DNA of 64,000 nt from Candidatus Cloacimonadota bacterium (lineage in GTDB: Bacteria; Cloacimonadota; Cloacimonadia; Cloacimonadales; Cloacimonadaceae). Position numbers and translations under genes: made by a program. Below are positions 8,105 to 64,000 of the stretch, one piece after another; position 1 is the first letter of the stretch, and each line of letters begins with the position of its first letter. The stretch is taken from positions 3,309-67,308 of the forward strand of contig DAOPZE010000001.1 in NCBI GenBank assembly GCA_035353255.1, given 5' to 3'. The notes beneath the pieces were generated by a model, which ran no database searches, was not told the origin of the DNA, and worked only from the letters and a program-made list of their open reading frames with translations.

Positions 8105-8136
8105 GAAGCGCTTCCGATCGGAAGCGCTTTTTTCTT
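8105..8136 (+). terminator. Rho-independent terminator after the DUF2723 gene
   Basis: 10-bp perfect stem AAGCGCTTCC (8106-8115) / GGAAGCGCTT (8120-8129), 4-nt loop, then TTTTTC. Confidence 0.85.
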
Positions 8137-8189
8137 TTCAAATATTACAGCCTCTAACTTACTCCCAGCCCTTCCCTATCGGTTTCGTG

Positions 8190-8237
8190 TATCCTTACCG
8201 TATCATTACCGTACGCTTCCCGTATGATATCCGTACA
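8190..8237 (+). repeat. 11-bp-phased CCGTAYG array, copy R1
   Basis: Sequence TATCCTTA-CCGTATC-atta-CCGTACG-cttc-CCGTATG-atat-CCGTACa. CCGTA cores start at 8198, 8209, 8220 and 8231, exactly 11 bp apart. Confidence 0.9.
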
Positions 8238-8457
8238 AGATACGATCACGATACTACACCTTTATCAGGATAATTCAGCCATCTCTTTGGCGGACAAAAG
8301 GAAAGAAGGGATTTTGTCTGATAGAGTATTCAAGGATGGCTGAGGAATATTTACCCGATCATAAGATAATCGCTGAAACTGTCCCTGATCTGCCAGAACT
8401 GTCTCGCCTATATATTATAGAGGGATGAATCTCTCAAGTAACAAAATGGAGTATTAT

Positions 8458-19717: not shown

Positions 19718-19774
19718 AGGATATGGTACGCTTCCCGTATGCCTCCCGTACGGTCACCGTACGATATCCGTATG
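19718..19774 (+). repeat. 11-bp-phased CCGTAYG array, copy R2 (five units)
   Basis: Sequence AGGATAT-GGTACG-cttc-CCGTATG-cctc-CCGTACG-gtca-CCGTACG-atat-CCGTATG. Cores start at 19724 (degenerate), 19735, 19746, 19757 and 19768. Confidence 0.9.
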
Positions 19775-23255: not shown

Positions 23256-23342
23256 GCCGAAGTGGTGAAATTGGTAGACGCAGTGGACTCAAAATCCACC
23301 GGGCATTAGCCCATGCCGGTTCGATTCCGGCCTTCGGCACCA
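23256..23342 (+). tRNA. tRNA-Leu (anticodon CAA), CCA encoded
   Basis: Acceptor stem GCCGAAG/CTTCGGC, anticodon stem GTGGA/TCCAC with loop CTCAAAA, long variable arm (class II), T-arm GGTTCGATTCC and 3' ACCA. Confidence 0.93.
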
Positions 23343-30214: not shown

Positions 30215-30247
30215 AAAAGGCAAGCGATTAGAATCGCTTGCCTTTTA
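30215..30247 (+). terminator. Rho-independent terminator closing the PorV-protease-paralogue cluster
   Basis: 11-bp stem GGCAAGCGATT (30219-30229) / AATCGCTTGCC (30232-30242), 2-nt loop, then TTTT. The 5' flank is A-rich. Confidence 0.9.
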
Positions 30248-30283
30248 TCTTTCCGCTTCTTTTCCGATCCAGTACCCTGACCT

Positions 30284-30331
30284 TATCCTTACCATACGCC
30301 TCCCGTATGGTGACCGTATGATATCCGTATG
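30284..30331 (+). repeat. 11-bp-phased CCGTAYG array, copy R3
   Basis: Sequence TATCCTTA-CCATACG-cctc-CCGTATG-gtga-CCGTATG-atat-CCGTATG. Cores start at 30292 (degenerate), 30303, 30314 and 30325. Confidence 0.9.
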
Positions 30332-30625: not shown

Positions 30626-33600
30626 ATGTATATAGATCATAGATATGAGGTTCTGGAGAGCCTTGGTACCGGTTCTTGGGCAAACGTTTACAAGGTACGG
30701 GATACTCGTACTGATAAGCTTTATACCTTAAAACTCTTCCAATACCTGCCATCCGAAGAGCTATATGCCAGATTCAGCGCCGAAGAAATGCACCATATTA
30801 CCAAGATCGAGCATCCCAACCTCAGCCATGTCGTGGATTTCGGACATGTCGGCGATCATGTTTACTACATCAGTGATTACTTCGAAGGTAATACCCTGAA
30901 TACATTCAAGTTCGGTAGAACCAAGGTGGATCAGCTCTATGACATCATTGTGCAGATCGCGTACGCCTTGCATGCCTTGCATGAACAGAATATCCTCCAC
31001 AAAGACCTTAAGTTGGAAAACGTCCTCTATCACGTGGAAGGAAAGGATGTTCGAGTCAAGCTTATCGATTATGGTTTTACCAAGATAGACCCGGTCAAGG
31101 ATAAAAAGTACGTCTCAGGGACTCTCCCTTATATCGCGCCGGAGATATATACAGGCAAAGCTCCCGATCGAAGGAGCGATTTCTACTCCTTAGGCGTTAT
31201 CTTATATAGAATATGCACAGGGAGTTTCCCTTACAATATCGACCAGATCAATGCCCTTATCACTGGAAACCAACGCTATTTCATTCCGACCTTCCCGTCA
31301 GAATTGAATAAAGACATCCCTCTCCCCCTGGAGAAATTCATCCTGATCCTTCTGGAACGCAACCCGGATAACCGGTTCAATTCCTGCGAAGAGATCATCA
31401 GCTATATCAACCGCATCCACTACAAGGAATACTCCTTCTCCGAATCATGGTCGATGGTCAACACTCTTAGGTTTAACAGCTATATAGTAAGAGAAAAGTA
31501 CTCGCATCAACTCCTGGATTTTATTCCGGCGGTCGGGGCAAGAAATGGCAAGATCATCTCTCTGATCGGTGGTGATGGGCTAGGTAAAGACAGCATTCTC
31601 TCGCTGTTTCGTTACCATTTGCTGAGCGGTGAGTATTTCCTCTTTGACTATAGCTGTACAAAGACTGATCATGAAGCTTTCTTCGCGTTGATCAAGGAAT
31701 ACCTGCATTCATTGAACGATCAGGAACTCAAGAACGACACTGCCTTAAACAAGATATCAGAGAAATTCAAGAGCTATCTCTTTGCTTCTGAGAAAGATGC
31801 CAAAGGTATATCCCAATCCGTGGAGGAGCTGCAAATTGACTTTCAGGCGGTCAGGTCGCTGCTGCTGGAACTATCTGAACGCAAACCGATCATCTTTATA
31901 ATCCGAGACTTCCAGTATGTCCACCATCATACTGTGGATTTTCTCAATTTCCTCTCCGGATTCCTGGTTCAATCAAGGATAATGGTCGTCCTTAGCTGCA
32001 ACGATTTCAATAAGGTCAAGCAGATCGATCATACAATACTGGTAAACATCCCTCCGCTCTCATTCGAAGAAACCAGGCAGTATATCAGTAAACTGCTGAA
32101 TACAGAGCCAAATCAGGGCTTGTTGGATGCCATCGCCTACCGGAGCGCCGGTAATCCGCATTTTATCAGAGAAATGCTGGTAGATATGATCATCCGCAAG
32201 ACGATAGAATATTCAGATGGACTGAAGCTCCCTGATGATCTAAACGATTATGTTTTGCCGGCAAGACTGCTGCACTCGATCTTCTCGCGCATGAGCAGGT
32301 TGACCAGCGCCAATTATCAATATCTGCAAAAACTATCGGTTGTTCAGACAACACTGACCAGGGAACTCATTCTCAGTATTCTGGGGATCACTGATATAGA
32401 GCTCTACAGTCTCCTCAATGAGAGTACCTATAATGAGATGCTACAGAAGGAGGATAAGCACTATAGTTTCTCCTTCCCAGAGGCAAAGGCAAGACTTTGG
32501 GATGAGACTGACCCTGATGAACGGATCAGGATTTCACAGAAGGTTCTTGATTTCTATGATTCAAAAGTTATCCACGATATCCCGCTGTGCAAAGGTATCA
32601 TCAGCAATGCGGAGATAACAGGAGATACCAGAAGAACGCGGGATTACCTCTTGAAACTCTACTATCTCCTCGATGCCGAACACGAGCAGGAACAGGCTTA
32701 CGATACAATGCTCAGGATCCTGGAGCTGGACGCTGACGCCAAAGTCAAAGTTGGCTACCAGGAATTCATCCATGACCTTTCCGCTTTTCACTCCAAGACA
32801 GAAATGACCGGATTCTATAAACAGGCTTCCCGTTTGTTGAAGAAGATGAACAAAATACCGGAAGTGTTTGAGAAGTACCTCTTGCTTGGCACGATAGATC
32901 TGCTTTCAGAGAATCTGAAGGAAGCTCTGAAACACTATGGTATAGCCGAGAACCTTGCGCTGACCGGTAAGCAGAAGATCCTCTGTTGGCAGTATTTCAC
33001 CCAGATATACACACGTATCGATCCAAGGAAGATGAAGCACTATCTGGATAAGATCGCGGCTTATGATCTTCCTCAGGATATGCAGATCCTCTACATCGAC
33101 CGGCTCGCAGTGTACTACTCCATCATGAAAGACACCGATAAAGCGATAAAAACCATTGAGACTTTCTTTGCTCAACTACCTCCTGAGCATGACACAGCAG
33201 TGATGATCAGACTAGCCGCAATGCACAACGATCTGGGTGTGTTCTACGGAGATCTGAAGAACATCGAAGAGGCAAATCAACATCTCAATATGGCCCTGAA
33301 TATCTGGAACCGATATAATATCAAGAGATTCCTTGCTTTGATATATAACAACATCTCAGACCTGTATCTTAAGCAGGGTTTTACCATCCAGTCAGAACAC
33401 TATTCCGATCTTGCATACGCCTCCGCGGATGAGCTGAACCTGCCTCTGATGAAAGCTCTTGCGTTATTGAATCAGGGCGAAGCCAAGATCAAGATGGGGA
33501 AATTCCTCGAAGCAGAAAGTAAATTGCTCGAATCTCAAGAATTGATCGAGAGAATCGGAAACACAAAGTATCTTGATTCGATAAAGCGGAACCTTGCTCT

Positions 33601-36088
33601 GGCAAAAAGCAAGATCAGAGGCTTTGGCTATTACTTTAAATTCCTCCAGGAAAGCGAACCAGAACTCATCGACGGGTATGTCCGCGAGATCAATCCTTTG
33701 GTGAAGACTTATTTCTACTATCTGCATGAGATGTCCAATCCCAAAAAACTTAGGAAATTGATCAGGAAGAATGTTCAGATCAATTACAAACACATCCTCG
33801 AGGAAGAGTTTTATCACAATGTTCTAAGTCTTTTGGCAATAACCGAAAAAGACTACGCGACTGCCCTCAATGAGCTCAAGATGGCGACAAAATTCGCCGG
33901 AGATATAAACAGTAATTATGCTATGGCAGTGTTCTATTTCTATCAGATCATCTGTTATTACGGACTTCGAGAGTATAAGAAAGCAGCTGAGTTGATCGAA
34001 AACGCCAAGCCTTTAGTGGTTGATAATCAGTACAATTATTGGCACCGTAATATCCAGATCATGGAGTTGAAACTGGATATGGTTAATCCTGAAGTGCCTC
34101 TGCGTAACATACTTCGCAGAACCAACGATCTGATGCTTTTATGCAGAGAAGAAGAATATTATCAGCTTATCGTTGAGCTTTATCAGATAAGGGTTCAGCT
34201 CCTTCTGGAACTGAGCGCGACTGAAAAAGCTTCTGCTTGTTTTGAGGAATACAAGCGTTTCCTCGAAGAGATCACGCTGAGTATAGCCGAAGATGACAGG
34301 CAAAATTATCTTCTGGTTAACCAATACGCGCTGAAGAGCATCACGAAGTTTGATCTTGTCGAATTCGTTTCACGCAGAAAGGACCAGAGAAACAGCTGGA
34401 ATGAGCTTCTGGTCAATATAGCTAATATCAACACATTGGACAGGATAATCTTCCTGATCGAAAAGGGCATAACTCAGGTTCTTTCACCCTGGCAGTTCAG
34501 ACTCATGGAGTATTCAGACCGTATAGGCAGCTTTTATACTTTTCAGAGTTACAACTGCGATAAGGATGTCAATATCGCCCCGGAACTACACCCTTACATC
34601 GAGAAGTCCATCAAAGCGGATAACTTGACCACGCTCTTCTTCCAGAACCAGAACATCATGGTAATCCCTCTGCTTACGGGAACCAAACGTATTGGAGTTC
34701 TGCTGTTAGCTGATGATGGGGAGCTTGAGTTTACCAAACACGAGATATCGATCATGCGCAGCATCAAACAACATCTGACTGCTCTCCTCGTCAGGATAAG
34801 AGACTATACTCAGATCACGATGAGGATCGATAAGATGAACCAACTGATGAGTATCTCCCACGAGTTGATGCGAGTCACGGATACTGTCGAACTTGAACAT
34901 CAGATCGTTTCAGCATTTATTGATATAACGAATAGCAGCAGAGGATTCCTGATCAAGAGAGATGCGGAAGGTAACAACCTCTATCAGATCCAGCTTGATC
35001 GCTCCAAACAGATACTCTCTTCAATATCTGGCATCAGTAAGACAGCATTGAGCGTGTGCCAGGCAACTATGGAGCCGGTCTCGACCTTTAACGCGATAGA
35101 AGATAACCGGTTCAAGAACTCTATCAGTGTTCAGGACTATGAAATACACACGATATTCTGCACACCGATCGTAGTTGATAATGTCAGCTATGGTATCATA
35201 TATCTCGATAACCTCCTGGAAAACAACAGGGAAATGTACCTCAATCAAGAGATCCTGACTCTTTTGATCGAACAGGTGACCGTAGCATTCAAGAACGCCG
35301 CACAATACGCTGCAGTGTTGCAAAAAAGCTCTGAGATCAATGCGTTTGAACAACTCAAAGATGAGTTTATGGCAATCGTTGCTCATGAGCTCAATACGCC
35401 TCTTACAACTCTGCAAGGCTATGTTTCAAGACTCAAGAGAAATCTGTATGTGGACGAGGAAGAACGAGTAGAGATCGTGCAGAAGATAGAAACATCGGTT
35501 AAAAAGTTAATTCTGACTATCGGTGATATAACTACCATGAATAACTATAATATCAAGACTTCGCTGACAAAATCCATCGTGCCTATAGAAGAGATCATTG
35601 AATTGGTTCAGCAGGAAGTCGAGATACTCTCACGCAAACGCAAGATGTTCATCAAGCTAGAGATCGAAAAAGACCTGCCACAGCTTTACGCGAACTGGGA
35701 AGCCTTGCATCTGATGCTCTATAATATCGTGCTAAACGCGATCAGATTTACTAATGACTTCGGAACGATCATTATTGGCGCCAGAAGATCAGCTTTCCAG
35801 CAAGAGAAACTCGATGGTAAGGACGCAATGGTCATTTATGTTCAGGATAACGGTATCGGTATCCCAGAATACCAGATCAAGAATGTCTTCAGGAAGTTCT
35901 ATGAACTCAATGAGATCTATGCGCATAAGTCCGGTATGGTGGAATATCGATCCAGCGGCTTGGGGCTTGGACTCGCCACATCCAGAAGGATTGCGGAACT
36001 TCATGGCGGTAACATCTGGATCAAGAGTAGAGAAAACGAAGGAACGACTGTCTTCATGACTATTCCTTTCAAGTCCGGAGGCAATTGA
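30626..36088 (+). CDS. 1820-aa multidomain sensor: Ser/Thr protein kinase, AAA_16/STAND-like NTPase, TPR-like repeats, GAF region, HisKA and HATPase_c histidine kinase
   Basis: Kinase: G-loop LGTGSWANVY, Lys in YTLKL, catalytic loop HKDLKLEN (H125), DYG, and GTLPYIAPE. NTPase: GGDGLGKDS (from aa 315) and IIFIIRDFQYV. Middle ~500 aa is helical repeats. H-box FMAIVAHELNTPLTTLQGY (His about aa 1587, nt 35384). ATP lid: DNGIGIP...FRKFYE...SGLGLGLATSRRIAELHGG. No TM segment seen. Confidence 0.85.
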   Translation: MYIDHRYEVLESLGTGSWANVYKVRDTRTDKLYTLKLFQYLPSEELYARFSAEEMHHITKIEHPNLSHVVDFGHVGDHVYYISDYFEGNTLNTFKFGRTKVDQLYDIIVQIAYALHALHEQNILHKDLKLENVLYHVEGKDVRVKLIDYGFTKIDPVKDKKYVSGTLPYIAPEIYTGKAPDRRSDFYSLGVILYRICTGSFPYNIDQINALITGNQRYFIPTFPSELNKDIPLPLEKFILILLERNPDNRFNSCEEIISYINRIHYKEYSFSESWSMVNTLRFNSYIVREKYSHQLLDFIPAVGARNGKIISLIGGDGLGKDSILSLFRYHLLSGEYFLFDYSCTKTDHEAFFALIKEYLHSLNDQELKNDTALNKISEKFKSYLFASEKDAKGISQSVEELQIDFQAVRSLLLELSERKPIIFIIRDFQYVHHHTVDFLNFLSGFLVQSRIMVVLSCNDFNKVKQIDHTILVNIPPLSFEETRQYISKLLNTEPNQGLLDAIAYRSAGNPHFIREMLVDMIIRKTIEYSDGLKLPDDLNDYVLPARLLHSIFSRMSRLTSANYQYLQKLSVVQTTLTRELILSILGITDIELYSLLNESTYNEMLQKEDKHYSFSFPEAKARLWDETDPDERIRISQKVLDFYDSKVIHDIPLCKGIISNAEITGDTRRTRDYLLKLYYLLDAEHEQEQAYDTMLRILELDADAKVKVGYQEFIHDLSAFHSKTEMTGFYKQASRLLKKMNKIPEVFEKYLLLGTIDLLSENLKEALKHYGIAENLALTGKQKILCWQYFTQIYTRIDPRKMKHYLDKIAAYDLPQDMQILYIDRLAVYYSIMKDTDKAIKTIETFFAQLPPEHDTAVMIRLAAMHNDLGVFYGDLKNIEEANQHLNMALNIWNRYNIKRFLALIYNNISDLYLKQGFTIQSEHYSDLAYASADELNLPLMKALALLNQGEAKIKMGKFLEAESKLLESQELIERIGNTKYLDSIKRNLALAKSKIRGFGYYFKFLQESEPELIDGYVREINPLVKTYFYYLHEMSNPKKLRKLIRKNVQINYKHILEEEFYHNVLSLLAITEKDYATALNELKMATKFAGDINSNYAMAVFYFYQIICYYGLREYKKAAELIENAKPLVVDNQYNYWHRNIQIMELKLDMVNPEVPLRNILRRTNDLMLLCREEEYYQLIVELYQIRVQLLLELSATEKASACFEEYKRFLEEITLSIAEDDRQNYLLVNQYALKSITKFDLVEFVSRRKDQRNSWNELLVNIANINTLDRIIFLIEKGITQVLSPWQFRLMEYSDRIGSFYTFQSYNCDKDVNIAPELHPYIEKSIKADNLTTLFFQNQNIMVIPLLTGTKRIGVLLLADDGELEFTKHEISIMRSIKQHLTALLVRIRDYTQITMRIDKMNQLMSISHELMRVTDTVELEHQIVSAFIDITNSSRGFLIKRDAEGNNLYQIQLDRSKQILSSISGISKTALSVCQATMEPVSTFNAIEDNRFKNSISVQDYEIHTIFCTPIVVDNVSYGIIYLDNLLENNREMYLNQEILTLLIEQVTVAFKNAAQYAAVLQKSSEINAFEQLKDEFMAIVAHELNTPLTTLQGYVSRLKRNLYVDEEERVEIVQKIETSVKKLILTIGDITTMNNYNIKTSLTKSIVPIEEIIELVQQEVEILSRKRKMFIKLEIEKDLPQLYANWEALHLMLYNIVLNAIRFTNDFGTIIIGARRSAFQQEKLDGKDAMVIYVQDNGIGIPEYQIKNVFRKFYELNEIYAHKSGMVEYRSSGLGLGLATSRRIAELHGGNIWIKSRENEGTTVFMTIPFKSGGN

Positions 36089-42786: not shown

Positions 42787-42825
42787 CGAAGGGGAGATCG
42801 TTAAACCCGCACTCCCCTTCTTTTT
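42787..42825 (+). terminator. Rho-independent terminator after iorB
   Basis: 9-bp stem GAAGGGGAG (42787-42795) / CTCCCCTTC (42811-42819), 15-nt loop, then TTTTTC. Confidence 0.75.
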
Positions 42826-42866
42826 CGTCTGTTATCACATTTCCTTATCCCCACCTTCTACCAGAC

Positions 42867-42946
42867 CCTATCCTCACCGTATGCCTCCCGTACGGTGACC
42901 GTATGATATCCGTACGAACGTACAGCCTTAGTATGGGGAGGATAGG
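42867..42946 (+). repeat. 11-bp-phased CCGTAYG array, copy R4, bracketed by a 9-bp inverted repeat
   Basis: Sequence TATCCTCA-CCGTATG-cctc-CCGTACG-gtga-CCGTATG-atat-CCGTACG. Cores start at 42877, 42888, 42899 and 42910. CCTATCCTC (42867-42875) is complementary to GAGGATAGG (42938-42946). Confidence 0.9.
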
Positions 42947-43004
42947 ATGATGTTTCGGTTGGAATAAGATTCAGGAAAAGGAAAGAACTTAGGGAGACGG
43001 GATG

Positions 43005-49824: not shown

Positions 49825-50418
49825 TTATTCCTCGATAGTGCTGTTGATCAGATCGTATGTCTCGTCCAATAGGCTCTGATGAACCAACCGGTAATGCGGT
49901 TGGTAAACGCTTTTATATATGTCAGAATGACTTGGGATCAGTTCTTGGCTGATCATATCCGAGATTCTCTTGGTATCAGATTCTGTGAGAGGTAGTCTGG
50001 TTTTTATCAATGGGATAACTTGCGACCAAACGAGTTCAATGTCTTTTGAACTATATGGTTCGCTAAGCCTGGATCCGTTTATGATCCTGACGAATTCGTC
50101 GATTGCTTCCTCTTGCTTTCTCCCATCCAGATCGGACAACCAGCATAAGCTTATCCTCTGATATCCGATTCCCGTACCGATATCATACGAGAAGGGTACG
50201 GGAAGCATACGGGCAGCGTTCAGTTCAGCAAAGAGTGCCTTCTTGATCAGGGAATGGGAATGTGGCATATGAGATGGTCCGGTAATTGCCTGATATATAA
50301 GTTTATACAGATCATCGAGCTGTGCCAGAGGATAGGAACAAAGCTCCATATCCAGTATCCGGGAAAGTTGCTCTTTAGTGAAGGAAGGTTTAAAGATCGC
50401 CATAAACCAGTTCACCAT
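49825..50418 (-). CDS. Hypothetical cytoplasmic protein
   Basis: 197-aa ORF abutting gltX. No motif recognised. The start is uncertain: it overlaps the amidohydrolase 3' end by 29 nt, and the alternative ATG is at 50403. Confidence 0.45.
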   Translation of the reverse strand: MVNWFMAIFKPSFTKEQLSRILDMELCSYPLAQLDDLYKLIYQAITGPSHMPHSHSLIKKALFAELNAARMLPVPFSYDIGTGIGYQRISLCWLSDLDGRKQEEAIDEFVRIINGSRLSEPYSSKDIELVWSQVIPLIKTRLPLTESDTKRISDMISQELIPSHSDIYKSVYQPHYRLVHQSLLDETYDLINSTIEE

Positions 50419-57824: not shown

Positions 57825-57872
57825 CGTACGGATATCATACGGGAGGCATACGGTGGGCGTACGGGAAGGATA
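57825..57872 (-). repeat. 11-bp-phased CCGTAYG array, copy R5 (inverted orientation)
   Basis: The reverse complement reads TATCCTTC-CCGTACG-ccca-CCGTATG-cctc-CCGTATG-atat-CCGTACG. On the plus strand the TACGG cores are at 57827, 57838, 57849 and 57860. Confidence 0.9.
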
Positions 57873-57996
57873 CCGCATAACTAAAGCCATAACACGCGAG
57901 ATTGAGATGGGATGTCTTGATATTCATCAGAAAAGTGCTTGTTTTCGATCATGTTTTGGTTATCATGTTAGTAACTATGCACTTAAGAGGTTAACA

Positions 57997-58311
57997 ATGA
58001 TACATGAGGTAGTCAACAACAAACTGGACGGATTTTCCAATAATAAACTGCTGGTCTTGGATTTCTATGCGGACTGGTGTAATCCCTGCCAGGCACTAGC
58101 ACCGGTTTTGGATAAGATCGCGAACGATAATCAGGATATCACATTCCTACGGATAAATGTCGATAACAACCAGGATCTATCAGATAAATACAACATTCTC
58201 AGCATTCCTACGCTTATCTTGATCAATGATGGTAGAGTGATAGAAACTTCGATCGGAGTTATCTCAGAGAACGTTCTGCAAAACAAATTGGATCTGATGA
58301 AACAAGCTTAA
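57997..58311 (+). CDS. trxA: Thioredoxin (active site WCNPC)
   Basis: 104 aa with VLDFYADWCNPCQALAP and SIPTLILI blocks. Start moved to ATG 57997 (AAGAGG RBS). The longer ORF from 57853 runs through repeat R5. Confidence 0.8.
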   Translation: MIHEVVNNKLDGFSNNKLLVLDFYADWCNPCQALAPVLDKIANDNQDITFLRINVDNNQDLSDKYNILSIPTLILINDGRVIETSIGVISENVLQNKLDLMKQA

Positions 58312-58359: not shown

Positions 58360-61300
58360 CTATAGGTTAACTTCGACCCAGACCCCCAGCCTGAAGATCC
58401 TTGTCCCGTCGTCGAGTCTTTTATCCGATGTGAGCTCCCAGGCGCTGGTTATACCGCCTTTGATATTCTGGTCAAATTGGTACGTTGCCCCGGGCGTTAT
58501 GGCGATCCTGCTGGTGTTTCTGTCAACCTGTGTCGCTTCTCTGCCGATCGTCTCATCGAAGTTCTTTTCGAATAATAGGGTCAGAGATGAGCTGAGTTCG
58601 TTCTTGATATGTATCTTCTTACCGGAGAAGGGTATCTTGAACCCTTTACCGGCTCTGAAGGAGTAGGACACCGTTCCGTTCATCGACTGCGAATTATTTG
58701 TCTTGATAATGTCATAGTTGTCCATTGCGGTGATATTTTTAGTACGGCTGAGAGAATAGCTGAGATTAACACTCAGGGACTTCGCAAAGTTGCCGGAGAA
58801 GCCTAACAACGGGCTCAAAGCGGTAGTAAAAGTTTCCTGGGAAGGTTCGAGCCAGTCAAGGTCACCATTCTGACGGACAGTATATTGGAATCCGGTGTTT
58901 AGTCTGCTTCCGGAAAGCCACTTTGACACCCCGATATATCTTTCAAAATCGACCAGAGAAACTGTAATATCAGGGAAAGTTGTGGAGATAGATTGATTAC
59001 TGGCGTTGGATTGTCTGCGATTCATGGTATAAGAGTAATTTATCGTGCTATCGACATTGCGGGAAACTGCCAGACCCGAAGAAAGCGTCAGTGTGTTATC
59101 ATTGGTCGTGGCGTCGAGGAAGTCTGGCGCGACCGAATGCGGGAGACCGATCTGGAATGCGAAAGGCGGGCGGACATCTTTCTCAGTGTAAGTCATGTTG
59201 TAAGTGTTTTGGAATGAGGCATTAATGTTTTTAAACTTGGATAGATAATTTAATAAGGTCGCCGGAACCTGGATAAAGCTAAAGCTATTGGAAGGCTTCT
59301 TCCCTCCTTGATCTCCGTCTTTCGGGACCTTGGGTTCTTCTCTGGGATCGGTCTCTTCCTTTGGTTCAAGATTATTCTTCTGGGAACCTTCTTCTTCCTT
59401 CTTTACCTCTTCTCCGGGTTTGTCTTCTCCCTTGTCAGAATCCTGCATCTCGAGCTTCTTCTTTTCCTCTTCGGTTAGTTCTTTCTTGTCACCCTCTTTA
59501 TCAAGTTCTTCTTTCGGTTCTTCTTGGTTACCATCAAACTTATATTCCACACCGGTTTGGTTTGGATCCTTGATTTCTTCTTTGGGCTGTTCTTTGTCCT
59601 TTTTGTCGTCTCTCTTCTTTTGAGGAGCCTTGGCTTTTAATGACTGTGACCAACCACTCAGAAGGTTTGAGTTTTGCAGTGTCACAGTGGCTCTGATTGA
59701 TCGGTTATTGCCGCCGTCTGAAGAATATACATCTATTGGGCCTTCGTCTGTGTTCTCGGTATGTTTACGCTGGAACTCGGTGTACTTGGTTGTGACAGAT
59801 GAATTGATGTTGAAGATATTGGAAAGGTAGTTCGGATTATATGCCAGTTCCACATCCTGCGAATATTCGGTTTCTTTACCGAGATTGATTTCTTTGTAGT
59901 AGTTCTTCTGAATCAGGTCTCGTTTTGTATTCAGTCTCAATCTGGCGGTTACATCCGAGAGGAGATTCCAATTGATGTTGGTATCCGTGGTCAGCAGCCT
60001 GGTATCGGCAGTGTTTGCCCGGGGATACCAACCGGTGATATTCTCTCTGGTATCCCAATAATAAGCGTTGGGTTCAGTAGCATTGAATGTGAAGCTGTTG
60101 TTCCAGGTCGTCGGGAACCATCCCAACCGGTATCTTTTTATGAGCGGGAAGCTCACTTTATCCGCAGGCAGGCTCAGATTATAGTTTAGTGTACCACGGT
60201 AAGTCAACGTCGTATCTTGTTGCGTTGGATTATGTAGATAGGAATCCTCGAGTCGCGCGCTGAAAGATGTCCTGTAGAGCGTATAGTTCAGGATCTTGTT
60301 TTTAGGAGCTGATTTCATACTTAAAGCGACATCAGCGGAATAGATGAGAGTCTCGTTCTTCTCGCGCTCTTTCTCAGTCAGATCAACGATATTCTCACGA
60401 AGCAGGTCTGAGTTTGCTCGATAACGCGGAATACCCTCAGTGTAGGTTCTGTTCAGGGACAACGGAATATCCATATTCCAGGATGTAGGCAGAAGCTTGT
60501 TCAGGAAGTACTTGTTTGTGATCGTCAATGACTTTGTTGAGGTAAAGGTGTTTGTTCTTCCTCGTTGGATAGTGGCATTGAAGTTCTCCGATTTGTCGTC
60601 ATAATCGACATCCAGAGTAATAAAATCAGCTAGTGCTGCGTTGAGAGTGAGGCGCTTTGCGATACCAATATCTTCATAAGGGTCCGCAACTCTCAGATCG
60701 TTGAAGAATACTGTTCCGGAAAACTCCCTATTTACCGGCAAGCTGTCCGGAATCGCCACGCCGAAGTAAACTTCACTAATATTAGTAAGTGTGGTCTTCC
60801 TTCCTATGAATGATACACTGTAAGACCCATGATCAATCGTGCCCTGGGTTTCGACGGGAAAAACTTCCTTGAGGGAACTTAATTCCTGAAGGTTATAAAC
60901 AAACTGATCCCACAGAGATTCAGACATCTTCGCCTGCCAAGCCTTAACGCCAACTCGTTGAGTGATCTGGTAATAATTCAGGGAATCCGCGCCGACCCGA
61001 AAGATAATATCAATGGAATCCGGATATGCTGAGTTTAGGTCTATATTCTCGGGATAGACCCAAAACTTGAGACGGTCATATGACAACAAGCTGTAAGGAT
61101 CGAATAACCGCTGACGCAAGAGTACTTGCTGGCCCGGCTGGAGATTAGCGATATTGAGGCTTAGAGCAGATTCACTTGTTTCTCGTCTATCCTCTATGAA
61201 AACAGTTCCCTTGGGAGGAGTGTAATGACTTCTGTTCTTCTGATTATTGACAATTCCAGATAAGTATTGTGTTCCGTATTGAGTCAATTCTGAACCCGAG

Positions 61301-64000
61301 ACTATTGAGCCATTCTCGTCCCTGACATAGAAATCCTGCCACTTGTTGCCGACGACAGAAGCATCCGCAATCAAGACCTTTGCTGTGGTATCTGTCTCTA
61401 GCCAGATCCTGGCGTAGGATATCTTTTTTAAACTTGGTTGGACTCCGGTAGTCGAATTGTTAACTATCTGATAATATTCAGGATCAGTCAAGGGTATCCG
61501 GTAGAGCCGCCAACCATCATGATTGATATTCTCCAAGTGCAGGGAGTCGATAAGCGAAACTGAATAGCTTAGATAACGGTCGAGCTGGTTCAATACTCCG
61601 TTACCGTCAAGATCCTCGGTATCCAGAACTCCGTTCGCTTCAGTACAATTCAGGAATGGATAGTCACCAGTGGCTTGATCAATTACGTTTGAAGCAATAT
61701 CGTTGGGATCATGCCCCGGATCATCCTGTGATATGCCATCAAGACCGATATCCTCATCATGAGTTGGCACGCCATCATTGTTCTTGTCTTCATTATTCAG
61801 GACATTGAGTCCGCCATACTCGGTATAAAAATCTTCATTTAGATCTCCAAGATCTATGTGTAGCGTGGCATTAGGAGTTGGCTCGTTGTTCCGGACGTCG
61901 AGTTTGACCAGTACTTCTATGTACTTCTTCTGGGAGAAATCAAGTTGATTTCCAAGGTATTTCATGATCCCGCCCCAGCTCCAGATACCTGCTCCCGGCA
62001 TCCCAAGATTGTTGGGGAAAACTTTCAAAGCCAGTACAGTGACATTCTCAGTCTTTTCGGTTTCAGTCAAAGTCAAAGGATCTTCAAGCTGGTCGCGGTG
62101 GATGTTTTTGGGGTTGTACCAAATCGTTCTGCCTTTTGCAAGAGATTGATTCCATGGTTTACTCGCCAAGGACCAGGTTCCTATCGTCACGCCCATGGGA
62201 TATGAATCTACGATCGATTCCATATCATCGATGTACGCTTCCTTTTTCTTTCCATTGGGATCGCCATAGATATTTGGGATCGTATAGGCAATTTCACCAG
62301 ATAGAGTTAAACGGCTTTCTGCGGTTGTGTTTATCAGGGGCAGCGCGTTGAGGATCTTGGTAATGAATTTCGGCTTGAGCGTAAGAGTACCATCTACGTC
62401 AGCCATCCACATCTGGATGTTCTCGTTCCCGATCTTGGGACGCTTATCGCTGACGCTCTCCGACCGGTATATCAAGGTACCACCTAGTTTAGCATAGTTA
62501 GTGATATTCCAGTCTGCCCTGACGCCTGTAAGAGTTTTCTGAGCCACCGCGAAAGTCGAACGATACTCGTAATCGATCTCGATCTTGGCGTCGGGATCTT
62601 TGCCCTCTGCCGTCAGGAACGTTATCCTTCCAAAGTCATAATCTACCAGATAATCGATGTTCTCTTTCTGCTGTTTGGAGTTCACTAGAACCCGGACGCT
62701 TCCCTTGAGTATACCTCCTTGGGGAAGCTCGATCGCCTCTCTGCCTATCTTGCCTTTAACAGAGATAAAGAAATCAATATCATCGTTATAGATGTTTTCG
62801 TTTTCATCTTCATAGATAATGCCGTCTCCTAACGGGGCAAAAGGCTGAATGAAGGGGAAGTATACAATGCCGGAAGTGAGATTAACGGTATTGTCGTCAC
62901 CATTGATCAGCCCGTCTCCGGAGCTGTCCATACGCAAGTAATCATTATAGGTGACAATACTGCCCACCTGAAGACTATCAGCTACATTATAGTTTCTAGT
63001 CTTATCCACATTCTCTGTAAAGATCTCAAGATTAAAGCCATCGCTTTTAATATTGGTTTTATTCATGTTGTACACGTTGCGCATCTGGTAGTGCCAGACG
63101 TTGTTCGGATCGGTTGAGTCATATTCCTGGTTTCTGCGACGTATCGGTTTTGCGTGCGTAACGGTATCTTCAGGGTCATCAGGATCCATATTAAGCGGAA
63201 CAGGTATCCCGTCCTGACGGATGTATTGAATTGCGATAGTAGTCCTGCGGTCAACCGCCCTTAGGATCTGGATAACACCGGAATTGTAATCGGTCACAAA
63301 GTCAGTTCCCTCGACGAGCTTATCATAGTATGGTACGTAGAAGTCGTTCTGAGAAAAGAAGATCGTATCACCAACAGCTGATGCAACATTATTTGTCGAG
63401 TTGAAATCATCTATATATACGTTTACGGTACCGTTCTGTGGTAAAAGACCAGGGTTCTTGATCAGCCATGCTCCACGTGAATTGGTTTTAATAGCGTTGT
63501 TTAAATATCCTGTCGGAACATTTGGTCCCATGTCGTCAGCTTCATAAAGATCATACAGCTCGTAAGGATCCGCGATATAGTACATAGTTCTTGCAGTATA
63601 GTCCTTACTGCGGAACACTGTTGAGTCAGCCTGAGATTGTCCTATATACGAAAGAGTATTCTTTTGTCCTTCTTCCTTACTGGCGATAACAGAAAGATCT
63701 AGATTCCCATACTTAAATCTTGATGTGACTCCGAACAATCCCTGCGAACTTGTGGAATAACTAATGTATCTTGATCCCGCCAAAGACAAGGTAATATTAC
63801 CCGCTTCGATGGATTTGACGATCTCATCTTCATCACCGGTGTACTTAACGTTGATGTTGTTAGGATCGAAGAGCTGTTCGTCCATCTGTGAATTGTATTT
63901 AAGATTGACCGCTATCTTCTCGCCGATGGTGCCGGATAGACGTAGATTGGTCTCTTGCTCCATCTTAAGATCGAAACGACTGGAATTACTTGTATCATAG
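58360..64000 (-). CDS. sprA: SprA/Sov-like T9SS outer-membrane translocon, 5'-truncated by the window edge
   Basis: More than 1867 aa and very beta-rich. The N-terminal visible part (VKYTGDEDEIVKSIEAGNITL...SSQGLFGVTSRFKYGNLDLSVIASKEEGQKN) matches my memory of the repeated SprA N-terminal signature. The reading frame stays open upstream of Met 63963 to nt 64000 (..YDTSNSSRFDLK-M..), so the true start is outside the window. Confidence 0.7.
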   Translation of the reverse strand, partial: YDTSNSSRFDLKMEQETNLRLSGTIGEKIAVNLKYNSQMDEQLFDPNNINVKYTGDEDEIVKSIEAGNITLSLAGSRYISYSTSSQGLFGVTSRFKYGNLDLSVIASKEEGQKNTLSYIGQSQADSTVFRSKDYTARTMYYIADPYELYDLYEADDMGPNVPTGYLNNAIKTNSRGAWLIKNPGLLPQNGTVNVYIDDFNSTNNVASAVGDTIFFSQNDFYVPYYDKLVEGTDFVTDYNSGVIQILRAVDRRTTIAIQYIRQDGIPVPLNMDPDDPEDTVTHAKPIRRRNQEYDSTDPNNVWHYQMRNVYNMNKTNIKSDGFNLEIFTENVDKTRNYNVADSLQVGSIVTYNDYLRMDSSGDGLINGDDNTVNLTSGIVYFPFIQPFAPLGDGIIYEDENENIYNDDIDFFISVKGKIGREAIELPQGGILKGSVRVLVNSKQQKENIDYLVDYDFGRITFLTAEGKDPDAKIEIDYEYRSTFAVAQKTLTGVRADWNITNYAKLGGTLIYRSESVSDKRPKIGNENIQMWMADVDGTLTLKPKFITKILNALPLINTTAESRLTLSGEIAYTIPNIYGDPNGKKKEAYIDDMESIVDSYPMGVTIGTWSLASKPWNQSLAKGRTIWYNPKNIHRDQLEDPLTLTETEKTENVTVLALKVFPNNLGMPGAGIWSWGGIMKYLGNQLDFSQKKYIEVLVKLDVRNNEPTPNATLHIDLGDLNEDFYTEYGGLNVLNNEDKNNDGVPTHDEDIGLDGISQDDPGHDPNDIASNVIDQATGDYPFLNCTEANGVLDTEDLDGNGVLNQLDRYLSYSVSLIDSLHLENINHDGWRLYRIPLTDPEYYQIVNNSTTGVQPSLKKISYARIWLETDTTAKVLIADASVVGNKWQDFYVRDENGSIVSGSELTQYGTQYLSGIVNNQKNRSHYTPPKGTVFIEDRRETSESALSLNIANLQPGQQVLLRQRLFDPYSLLSYDRLKFWVYPENIDLNSAYPDSIDIIFRVGADSLNYYQITQRVGVKAWQAKMSESLWDQFVYNLQELSSLKEVFPVETQGTIDHGSYSVSFIGRKTTLTNISEVYFGVAIPDSLPVNREFSGTVFFNDLRVADPYEDIGIAKRLTLNAALADFITLDVDYDDKSENFNATIQRGRTNTFTSTKSLTITNKYFLNKLLPTSWNMDIPLSLNRTYTEGIPRYRANSDLLRENIVDLTEKEREKNETLIYSADVALSMKSAPKNKILNYTLYRTSFSARLEDSYLHNPTQQDTTLTYRGTLNYNLSLPADKVSFPLIKRYRLGWFPTTWNNSFTFNATEPNAYYWDTRENITGWYPRANTADTRLLTTDTNINWNLLSDVTARLRLNTKRDLIQKNYYKEINLGKETEYSQDVELAYNPNYLSNIFNINSSVTTKYTEFQRKHTENTDEGPIDVYSSDGGNNRSIRATVTLQNSNLLSGWSQSLKAKAPQKKRDDKKDKEQPKEEIKDPNQTGVEYKFDGNQEEPKEELDKEGDKKELTEEEKKKLEMQDSDKGEDKPGEEVKKEEEGSQKNNLEPKEETDPREEPKVPKDGDQGGKKPSNSFSFIQVPATLLNYLSKFKNINASFQNTYNMTYTEKDVRPPFAFQIGLPHSVAPDFLDATTNDNTLTLSSGLAVSRNVDSTINYSYTMNRRQSNASNQSISTTFPDITVSLVDFERYIGVSKWLSGSRLNTGFQYTVRQNGDLDWLEPSQETFTTALSPLLGFSGNFAKSLSVNLSYSLSRTKNITAMDNYDIIKTNNSQSMNGTVSYSFRAGKGFKIPFSGKKIHIKNELSSSLTLLFEKNFDETIGREATQVDRNTSRIAITPGATYQFDQNIKGGITSAWELTSDKRLDDGTRIFRLGVWVEVNL

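Follow-up and report, generated by a model that had tools for sequence, protein, structure and literature searches.

The arrays in the window and their coordinates

The window, by which we mean the whole 64,000-nt stretch of Candidatus Cloacimonadota DNA that was analysed here (contig DAOPZE010000001.1), carries a family of dispersed, short intergenic arrays, in which the heptamer CCGTAYG is repeated head to tail four or five times at an exact phase of 11 bp. The window sequence recurs in contig DAONFV010000001.1 of the metagenome-assembled genome GCA_035403745.1 and in anaerobic-digester assemblies, its proteins are assigned by their sources to Candidatus Cloacimonadota, and it encodes a SprA_N protein, which fits the FCB group. 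Five copies of the array had been proposed in an initial annotation of the window, and all five, together with the 11-bp steps between their cores, were confirmed by direct reading and by a pattern scan; a sixth, degenerate copy on the minus strand (R6) had been missed, and a seventh lies to the left of the window in the same species. The copies are as follows, with the start positions of the units in brackets where they were read singly.

R1: 8187..8237, plus strand; leader GTGTATCCTTA and four units CCGTATC-atta, CCGTACG-cttc, CCGTATG-atat, CCGTACA (8198, 8209, 8220, 8231); nhmmer match 8159-8328, E 1.7e-31
R2: 19724..19774, plus strand; five units, the first degenerate (TGGTACG at 19724; then 19735, 19746, 19757, 19768); antisense between two minus-strand genes, 80 nt upstream of an EF-G-like start
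R3: 30281..30331, plus strand; leader CCTTATCCTTA, CCATACG (30292) and three canonical units (30303, 30314, 30325); 295 nt upstream of a gene for a 1820-aa Ser/Thr-kinase/His-kinase
R4, the reference copy: 42866..42916, plus strand; leader CCCTATCCTCA and units CCGTATG-cctc, CCGTACG-gtga, CCGTATG-atat, CCGTACG (42877, 42888, 42899, 42910); between convergent IOR-beta and GH77 genes; nhmmer match 42836-42996, E 1.5e-36
R6: 50173..50223, minus strand; units CTGAACG-ctgc, CCGTATG-cttc, CCGTACC-cttc, TCGTATG-atat, CGGTACG; nhmmer E 5e-30
R5: 57825..57875, minus strand; units CGGTATC-cttc, CCGTACG-ccca, CCGTATG-cctc, CCGTATG-atat, CCGTACG, in 11-bp steps; antisense between coaE and a thioredoxin gene
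Seventh copy of the window species: locus L153, 5291-5432, about 4.5 kb left of the window

When at most two mismatches are allowed, the two-unit pattern CCGTAYG-N4-CCGTAYG gives 30 matches against 0.42 expected, and none of the 100 dinucleotide-preserving shuffles that served as the chance control reaches 30. Period-11 arrays at all of the window sites were also reported independently by Tandem Repeats Finder. By contrast, single heptamers outside the arrays occur at the chance level (4 per strand versus 3.2 expected), so that what stands out is the array and not the single heptamer. The seven copies are spread over 74 kb, i.e., about one per 10 kb, with six lying in intergenic gaps and one in an orphan open reading frame (ORF). 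The five copies proposed initially, R1-R5, lie in gaps, and the additional R6 lies in a called ORF. It had been estimated that the arrays occupy five of about 12 gaps above 100 bp, which is close to the five of 10 that are counted in the ORF map. No homologue from another species is present among 5.8 billion proteins for the called ORF that hosts R6 (49825-50418, minus strand; 192 aa, hypothetical), which may be spurious or may be an orphan gene that absorbed the array.

Conservation of the unit and of its flanks

Besides the copies listed above, 25 loci were retrieved from metagenomes with a pattern specific for the family, and they gave 13 further distinct copies. These loci, which have 48-53% G+C and no DNA in common with the window except the element, belong to a second Cloacimonadota lineage. 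In the sample of 20 copies, 19-20 copies could be stacked without gaps over five unit positions (a to e), and the core statistics given here refer to units b-e of the 20 copies, i.e., to 80 units. Over these units C1, C2 and G3 are each present 79 times, T4 and A5 80 times and G7 70 times, with Y6 being C in 40 units and T in the other 40. No indel is present in the array and all of the 80 units are in the 11-bp register, so that the exact phase noticed initially in the window holds across the 20 copies. Unit a is degenerate, with TATCCTTA standing in its place in most of the window copies. The spacers after units b and c are variable (CCTC in 12 of 20 copies; GTGA, CCTC, CTTC, GTAC or CCCC), while the spacer between units d and e is ATAT in 19 of 20 copies, with CCGTATGATATCCGTAC being the most conserved block. 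The initial annotation had considered the spacers to be conserved in the same order. This describes R2, R3 and R4 (cctc, gtga or gtca, atat), with R3 and R4 indeed differing at 5 of 48 positions by direct reading, but it does not describe R1 (atta-cttc-atat) or R5 (ccca-cctc-atat), and only the last spacer is general.

Inside the array only Y6, the spacers and, in the last unit, G7 vary; in this unit the change from G7 to A is seen in 7 of 20 copies and is never compensated at C2. It is also noted that C1 is invariant (79/80) though it lies outside the self-complementary hexamer, and that the change from G3 to A is seen once, whereas 40 of the 80 units have T at Y6. A cluster of methylation sites (GTAC or CGTACG) was considered and rejected, since position 6 is T in half of the units. 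Between copies the identity is 77-79% in the array and 31-34% in the flanks, and these values do not change when copies are compared across the two lineages instead of within one. Between near-identical strains (comparison sets L116/L124, L120/L127, L117/L130, L129/L133 and L134/L136/L152), the differences amount to 0/255 in the array, 8/450 in the adjacent 3' region (P ~0.01) and 8/2940 in the surrounding, mostly coding DNA. As copying in the absence of selection would spread the differences evenly, CCGTA-G and the exact 11-bp phase are under purifying selection, while the spacers and the flanks drift. As a separate observation on the strain pairs, the 90 nt on the 3' side of the array evolve about six times faster than the surrounding DNA.

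The element does not end with the direct units, and the length of about 50 bp given to it initially proved too short, since most copies of the second lineage have five units, and inverted 3' units and a purine-rich block belong to the real unit as well. An inverted half-site, which is AAATACGG-like (TACGG-like), is present at +3/+4 after unit e in 12 copies, and more degenerate inverted units follow downstream in register with the array. For the 100 nt on the 3' side the autocorrelation at 11 and 22 nt is significant (0.313 and 0.307, as compared with about 0.26), and no such periodicity is found in the upstream or distal sequence. In at least 14 copies the purine-rich block, GCAAAAGGAAAG, is at a fixed +57 (+/-1) nt, and on its 5' side the array is preceded by a pyrimidine-rich tract. 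Conservation is much lower in the 3' arm than in the 5' arm. In R1 and R4 these features are located as follows.

R1 purine-rich block GGCGGACAAAAGGAAAGAAGGG: 8289..8310, plus strand; +52..+73 from the array end, a column shared by at least 14 of 20 copies
R4 3' arm: 42919..42946, plus strand; degenerate inverted units CGTACAG, AGTATGG and GGAGGATAGG
R4 purine-rich block CAGGAAAAGGAAAGAAC: 42972..42988, plus strand; at +56..+72

A closing helix or terminal inverted repeat, in which the pyrimidine-rich tract on the 5' side would pair with the purine-rich block on the 3' side, was considered and rejected, because the complementarity is generic (permutation P = 0.42) and the positions on the 5' side vary. 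A 15-nt inverted repeat (CCTATCCTCACCGTA and TATGGGGAGGATAGG, 87% complementary) is specific to R4. Also in R4 only (42932-42964), a strong Shine-Dalgarno-like GGGGAGGATAGG is followed by ATGATGTTTCGGTTGGAATAA, a 6-codon ORF (MMFRLE), with the Shine-Dalgarno-like purines being the 3' half of the 15-nt inverted repeat with the array leader. When checked across copies, no conserved small ORF or leader peptide is present after the Shine-Dalgarno-like purine block.

Gene context and distribution of the family

Among the 18 copies whose context can be classified, eight lie between convergent genes (P = 0.003 versus the 15% expectation), nine between co-directional genes (three sense and six antisense) and one in a divergent gap. 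Some copies begin 28-53 nt past a stop codon without an intervening terminator, and others come after a terminator. The intrinsic terminators claimed initially upstream of R1, R3 and R4 are real, as found by the terminator scan for R1 and by direct reading and RNAfold for R3 and R4.

Intrinsic terminator of the TMEM260-like gene: 8105..8140, plus strand; about 50 nt before R1, with an 11-pair stem and a T run; 8105-8130 in the terminator scan
Terminator-like hairpin AAAAGGCAAGCGAT-TAGA-ATCGCTTGCCTTTT: 30215..30252, plus strand; 37 nt before R3, by direct reading
Terminator hairpin AAGGGGAG-N15-CTCCCCTT with CTTTTT: 42789..42826, plus strand; 40-50 nt before R4, by sequence and RNAfold

The R3 hairpin was unlisted by the terminator scan, probably because its A/T ends were absorbed into the stem. 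No consistent sigma-70 promoter or terminator adjoins the array, and sigma-54 and Bacteroidetes-type motifs beside it were checked by eye and rejected. In 7 of 20 copies the array side is 60-180 nt upstream of an opposite-strand start codon. The flanking genes are functionally unrelated (IOR, GH77, EF-G-like, amino-acid kinase, the giant Ser/Thr-His kinase, GlmM, DHFR, RibD, OTCase, fumarase, RadA-like, thioredoxin and cargo of the type IX secretion system, T9SS), and no transposase, RAYT, par or rep gene is found among about 35 flanking or window proteins that were scanned. A polarity oriented with replication was rejected as well, the copies running -,+,+,+,+,-,- along the contig with no clear switch of GC skew.

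Some observations on the neighbouring genes are given here. ORF 57853-58311 (plus strand) is a real thioredoxin gene (Pfam 2.4e-23), the true start of which is probably near 57996 (AAGAGG-N6-ATG); with this start, R5 would be antisense about 120 nt upstream of trx rather than in a convergent gap. Two giant genes each flank a copy. One (30626-36088, plus strand) encodes the 1820-aa fusion of Ser/Thr kinase, AAA, TPR, GAF, HisKA and HATPase domains, and the other (58360-63963, minus strand) encodes a 1867-aa SprA-like T9SS protein, the exact product of which is absent from the gene index, where the start was probably called differently. A tRNA-Leu(CAA) gene (23256-23342, plus strand) is the sole Rfam or ARAGORN match in the window.

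The gene context bears on the idea, raised in the initial annotation, that the arrays are sites of a response regulator of the OmpR/PhoB type or of another global regulator. The Pho box consists of 7-bp direct repeats with a 4-bp spacer. The present arrays resemble Pho and SARP boxes in having a 7-bp direct repeat and a 4-bp spacer, head to tail, with one repeat per helical turn and an exact 11-bp period, and those copies that are 60-180 nt upstream of an opposite-strand start codon could be placed for control of a regulon. SARPs, too, bind repeats that are 11 or 22 bp apart (PMC10936776). Yet the eight convergent gaps against one divergent gap, the three sense against six antisense copies and the lack of any fixed orientation or distance to start codons are not what would be expected for such sites, which have a set place and direction on the promoters that they regulate, over the -35 or beside it. 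In addition, the arrays lie off promoters, the neighbouring genes show no functional coherence, known regulons are far less dense than about one copy per 10 kb, the units number four to five, the spacers are not A/T-rich except the last one, and the heptamer is unlike CTGTCAT. Thus, judged by analogy with the characterised systems, Pho-box-like control of a regulon seems to us quite unlikely.

It is also conceivable that the arrays are read by shape, as a site for a DNA-wrapping enzyme or nucleoid protein, in which flexible CG, TA and YG steps would be phased over about 130-150 bp. The 11-bp periodicity that reaches about 100 nt past the array and the location at gene ends and in convergent gaps are consistent with this. 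The gyrase motif of E. coli spans about 130 bp with two periodic arms, and BIME-2 elements are strong gyrase sites independent of transcription (PMC6379681). But the near-absolute conservation of five bases exceeds what indirect readout would need, the gyrase motif is degenerate and symmetric while the element is strongly asymmetric, and relatives exist without the family, so a site read by shape, such as a BIME-2-like gyrase site, which the arrays resemble in periodicity and location only, appears very unlikely.

Two further proposals of the initial annotation, a plasmid-type centromere and replication iterons, can be treated together. The parC site of plasmid R1 has 11-bp direct repeats, which are bound by ParR. 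Tandem 11-bp repeats that are bound cooperatively are a feature shared by R1 ParR-parC and the RepB locus of pMV158, and the layout of the latter resembles the direct and inverted units seen here. In pMV158 the sites of RepB are three direct repeats of 11 bp, which lie about 80 bp away from an inverted-repeat hairpin (PMC4753449). Those are single plasmid loci beside rep or par genes, whereas here seven copies are dispersed over a 74-kb chromosome-like contig of housekeeping genes with no par or rep gene adjacent, and blastn found no plasmid or phage homologue. Owing to the copy number and the context, a centromere or iteron function is effectively refuted.

The family is restricted to certain lineages, because nhmmer found zero copies in eight related loci of other Cloacimonadota (about 107 kb), among them those of the relatives nearest in IOR-beta (82-85% identity). 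At the density of the window the probability of finding none is 4e-5 for the eight loci and 0.04 for the two closest, longer loci. In the gap after the IOR-beta gene the CCGTAYG family is absent from five relatives. Conservation at orthologous sites was considered for the nitroreductase neighbours in the two lineages and rejected, as these are not orthologues.

The element is not a described repeat family, in agreement with the initial annotation. With Rfam 15 nothing was found on it at the gathering score or at E up to 10, i.e., it matches no catalogued RNA family, and nothing relevant was found in the literature on the motif or on Cloacimonas repeats. A viral match to the d-e junction was rejected as a chance two-unit match within a gene. 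Arrays in Streptomyces, Bacteroidota and phages looked suggestive of a widely conserved CCGTAYG-binding factor; this was rejected because shuffled heptamers match as often or more (in viral matches 21, 13 and 16 for three shuffled heptamers versus 8 for CCGTAYG), which makes those arrays generic 11-bp tandem repeats.

A multi-copy, intergenic distribution in two Cloacimonadota lineages with absence from the eight related loci is also what would be expected of selfish or decaying DNA similar to miniature inverted-repeat transposable elements (MITEs), without host function, in which the arrays would have arisen by slippage or would be subterminal repeats bound by a transposase, and the pyrimidine-rich and purine-rich flanks do resemble inverted ends. 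A classical MITE is nevertheless unsupported, because no target-site duplication is detectable (direct repeats within copies are 4.75-5.05 nt, versus 4.87-5.17 nt in controls between copies), the flanks are unrelated, at 31-34% identity, and their complementarity is generic. Moreover, near-invariant cores with variable spacers are not expected from unselected copying, no insertion polymorphism is present in five strain pairs, and no transposase gene is nearby. We consider this explanation unlikely.

A putative protein-binding array at gene ends

The conservation pattern described above points to a protein acting on duplex DNA. The invariance of C1 outside the palindrome, the uncompensated change of G7 and the mixed orientation of the copies together favour an asymmetric heptamer that is read on the duplex. 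Alternatively, the array and its inverted 3' units may act as a single strand of RNA or DNA, as a hairpin of the REP/REPIN type that would stabilise mRNA 3' ends, serve as a terminator or be the substrate of a RAYT-like HUH transposase. CGUAYG is self-complementary if the G-U wobble is allowed, and adjacent units can form 6-bp hairpins. As compared with shuffles the copies fold slightly better (mean z -1.17, P = 2e-5), and the RNAalifold consensus has the unit-unit hairpins b:c and d:e and nothing else, with one compensatory change and many G-C/G-U changes. The TACGG-like inverted unit at +3/+4, the long hairpin that R4 forms, the clean palindromes in other 11-bp arrays of Cloacimonadota and the REP-like, extragenic distribution at gene 3' ends can also be counted in favour of the hairpin. 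But the folds of single copies are heterogeneous, the top and bottom strands have folding energies of -33.1 and -33.8 kcal/mol, i.e., show no difference, the complementarity of the flanks is not copy-specific, and the 3' arm, which would have to pair, is the less conserved one. A conserved RNA structure was rejected, with only trivial unit-unit pairs being common to the copies, weak z-scores and equally stable strands. The hairpin is likewise at odds with the invariant C1, the uncompensated G7, the single change from G3 to A against 40 of 80 units with T at Y6, the mixed orientation relative to transcription, the lack of a RAYT or transposase among the 30 or more flanking genes scanned and the lack of an Rfam match. 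Of the REP-like RNA that the initial annotation had named as an alternative, the distribution stands while the RNA or hairpin mechanism is unsupported by the folds, and we regard the single-stranded explanation as improbable, though one that deserves to be kept in mind.

We turn to the reading that we tentatively prefer, a plausible one which we would not call established, namely that the arrays form a REP-like dispersed family, with a core to which protein would bind cooperatively on duplex DNA and which would act at the ends of genes. The element is a lineage-restricted, multi-copy one composed of four to five direct 11-bp units, then inverted units in register and then the purine-rich block. 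The heptamers would lie on one face of the duplex and be read cooperatively by a sequence-specific protein, with one subunit per helical turn, and the likely nucleation point would be the invariant GATATC junction together with the palindrome CCGTA-N5-TACGG that the last unit forms with the inverted half-site. Such binding has precedents in RepB and the SARPs, which sit on their repeats one per turn, and in ParR on parC. The protein-binding array already suggested by the initial annotation is the mechanism best supported by the features read from the DNA, i.e., the phased asymmetric heptamer, CCGTA in 79-80 of 80 units, the variable spacers and the flanks at random level. At gene ends, the array would be a chromosome-organising, topological or insulating site and not a promoter-proximal activator. 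Such a role, which we suggest with low confidence, is based on the copies sitting after terminators and between convergent genes in either orientation, a distribution analogous to that of REP/BIME elements; among the functions listed initially, a nucleoid or boundary factor fits best.

Several points weigh against this protein-array reading. The self-complementarity of CGUAYG and the slightly better folding than shuffles have been given above. The purine-rich block is left unexplained by a protein array. The absence of the family from the eight related loci implies that any role is dispensable or is taken over by other arrays. Of the 20 copies in the sample, 13 were recruited through the pattern itself. 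No reader protein is suggested by any of the flanking genes scanned, and the copy number and placement are unlike any characterised transcription-factor regulon.

Arrays with units unrelated to CCGTAYG are also present in the Cloacimonadota loci that were fetched, and they favour 11 bp: 11 of 18 with periods of 9-13 have this period (P = 1.6e-4). Among arrays of at least 2.5 copies, 11 have period 11, versus 3-4 for each of the periods 7-10 and none for periods 12-13. The other 11-bp arrays are as follows.

L134, 11-92 (= L152, 4961-5042): CTAATCATTCC
L122, 9453-9523
L125, 5055-5095
L149, 7032-7064 and 20520-20558
L150, 19528-19560
L147, 10798-10840
L148, 10827-10865

These arrays have several direct units, with one or more inverted units before or after them, often with pyrimidine-rich or purine-rich flanks, and the CCTGCWTG array of L147 and L148 occupies the gap orthologous to that of R4. 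Like the CCGTAYG family they are intergenic, with an 11-bp period and both direct and inverted units; unlike it they are mostly cleaner palindromes and, so far, of single or low copy number. It is possible, though on balance unlikely, that the lineage-specific 11-bp arrays constitute an undescribed class of gene-end chromosomal signposts, each co-evolving with its own DNA-binding protein. Each reader might then serve as a boundary, insulator or topology factor, or might be a Rep/HUH-like protein that was domesticated and recognises iterons in the way of RepB, with CCGTAYG being the high-copy example and CCTGCWTG, CTAATCATTCC and the other arrays its counterparts in sister lineages.

Other tandem repeats were seen among the recruited loci. 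In the second lineage, long tandem arrays of one and the same 7-nt unit occur at L122 9543-9623 (GTATCAG, 11.6 copies) and L125 1543-1630 (AGGTATC, 12.6 copies), one of which adjoins an 11-bp palindromic array. L118, L128 and L137, marine metagenome contigs of 1-1.6 kb, consist almost wholly of 11-bp arrays, CCGTACGATAT, CCGTACATCCC and CCGTACGGCGT, in both orientations, and are unrelated to the window. At L121 9187-9208 two tandem AGTTATCCACA (DnaA-box-like TTATCCACA) stand at 11-bp spacing, and by its sequence this may be the oriC or the dnaA-promoter region of the second lineage. L132 (a Ga0126342 contig of 12.9 kb), in which the coding density is low and at least eight distinct tandem arrays with an 11-bp period occur, matched only via a CGTATGATATC tandem repeat and is probably eukaryotic or otherwise unrelated.

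It is mainly in Proteobacteria that dispersed intergenic repeats are known (REP/BIME, ERIC, Correia), and there they are palindromic. The present family is most like the REP/BIME elements of Enterobacteria and Pseudomonas (REPIN-RAYT), which are also short, high-copy, extragenic and lineage-specific, lie at gene 3' ends and in convergent gaps and include some inverted repeats. BIME-2 is moreover a gyrase-binding site (PMC6379681), in which it resembles the protein site proposed here. The present family differs from the REP/BIME elements in that they are imperfect palindromes, while here an asymmetric heptamer is repeated head to tail at an 11-bp phase with no conserved hairpin beyond the unit-unit ones, and in that no RAYT is among the about 35 proteins scanned and the flanks outside the array are unrelated.

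The family is thus a dispersed repeat built from phased direct repeats of a near-invariant asymmetric heptamer, in an uncultured phylum that is important in anaerobic digestion. Its motif is of a simplicity that suits pull-down, DAP-seq or structure prediction. The family is also a metagenome marker for these lineages, and it may break their assemblies. If it is true that a protein reads the arrays at gene ends, they would provide an accessible bacterial case in which chromosome organisation or transcriptional insulation is encoded in the sequence.

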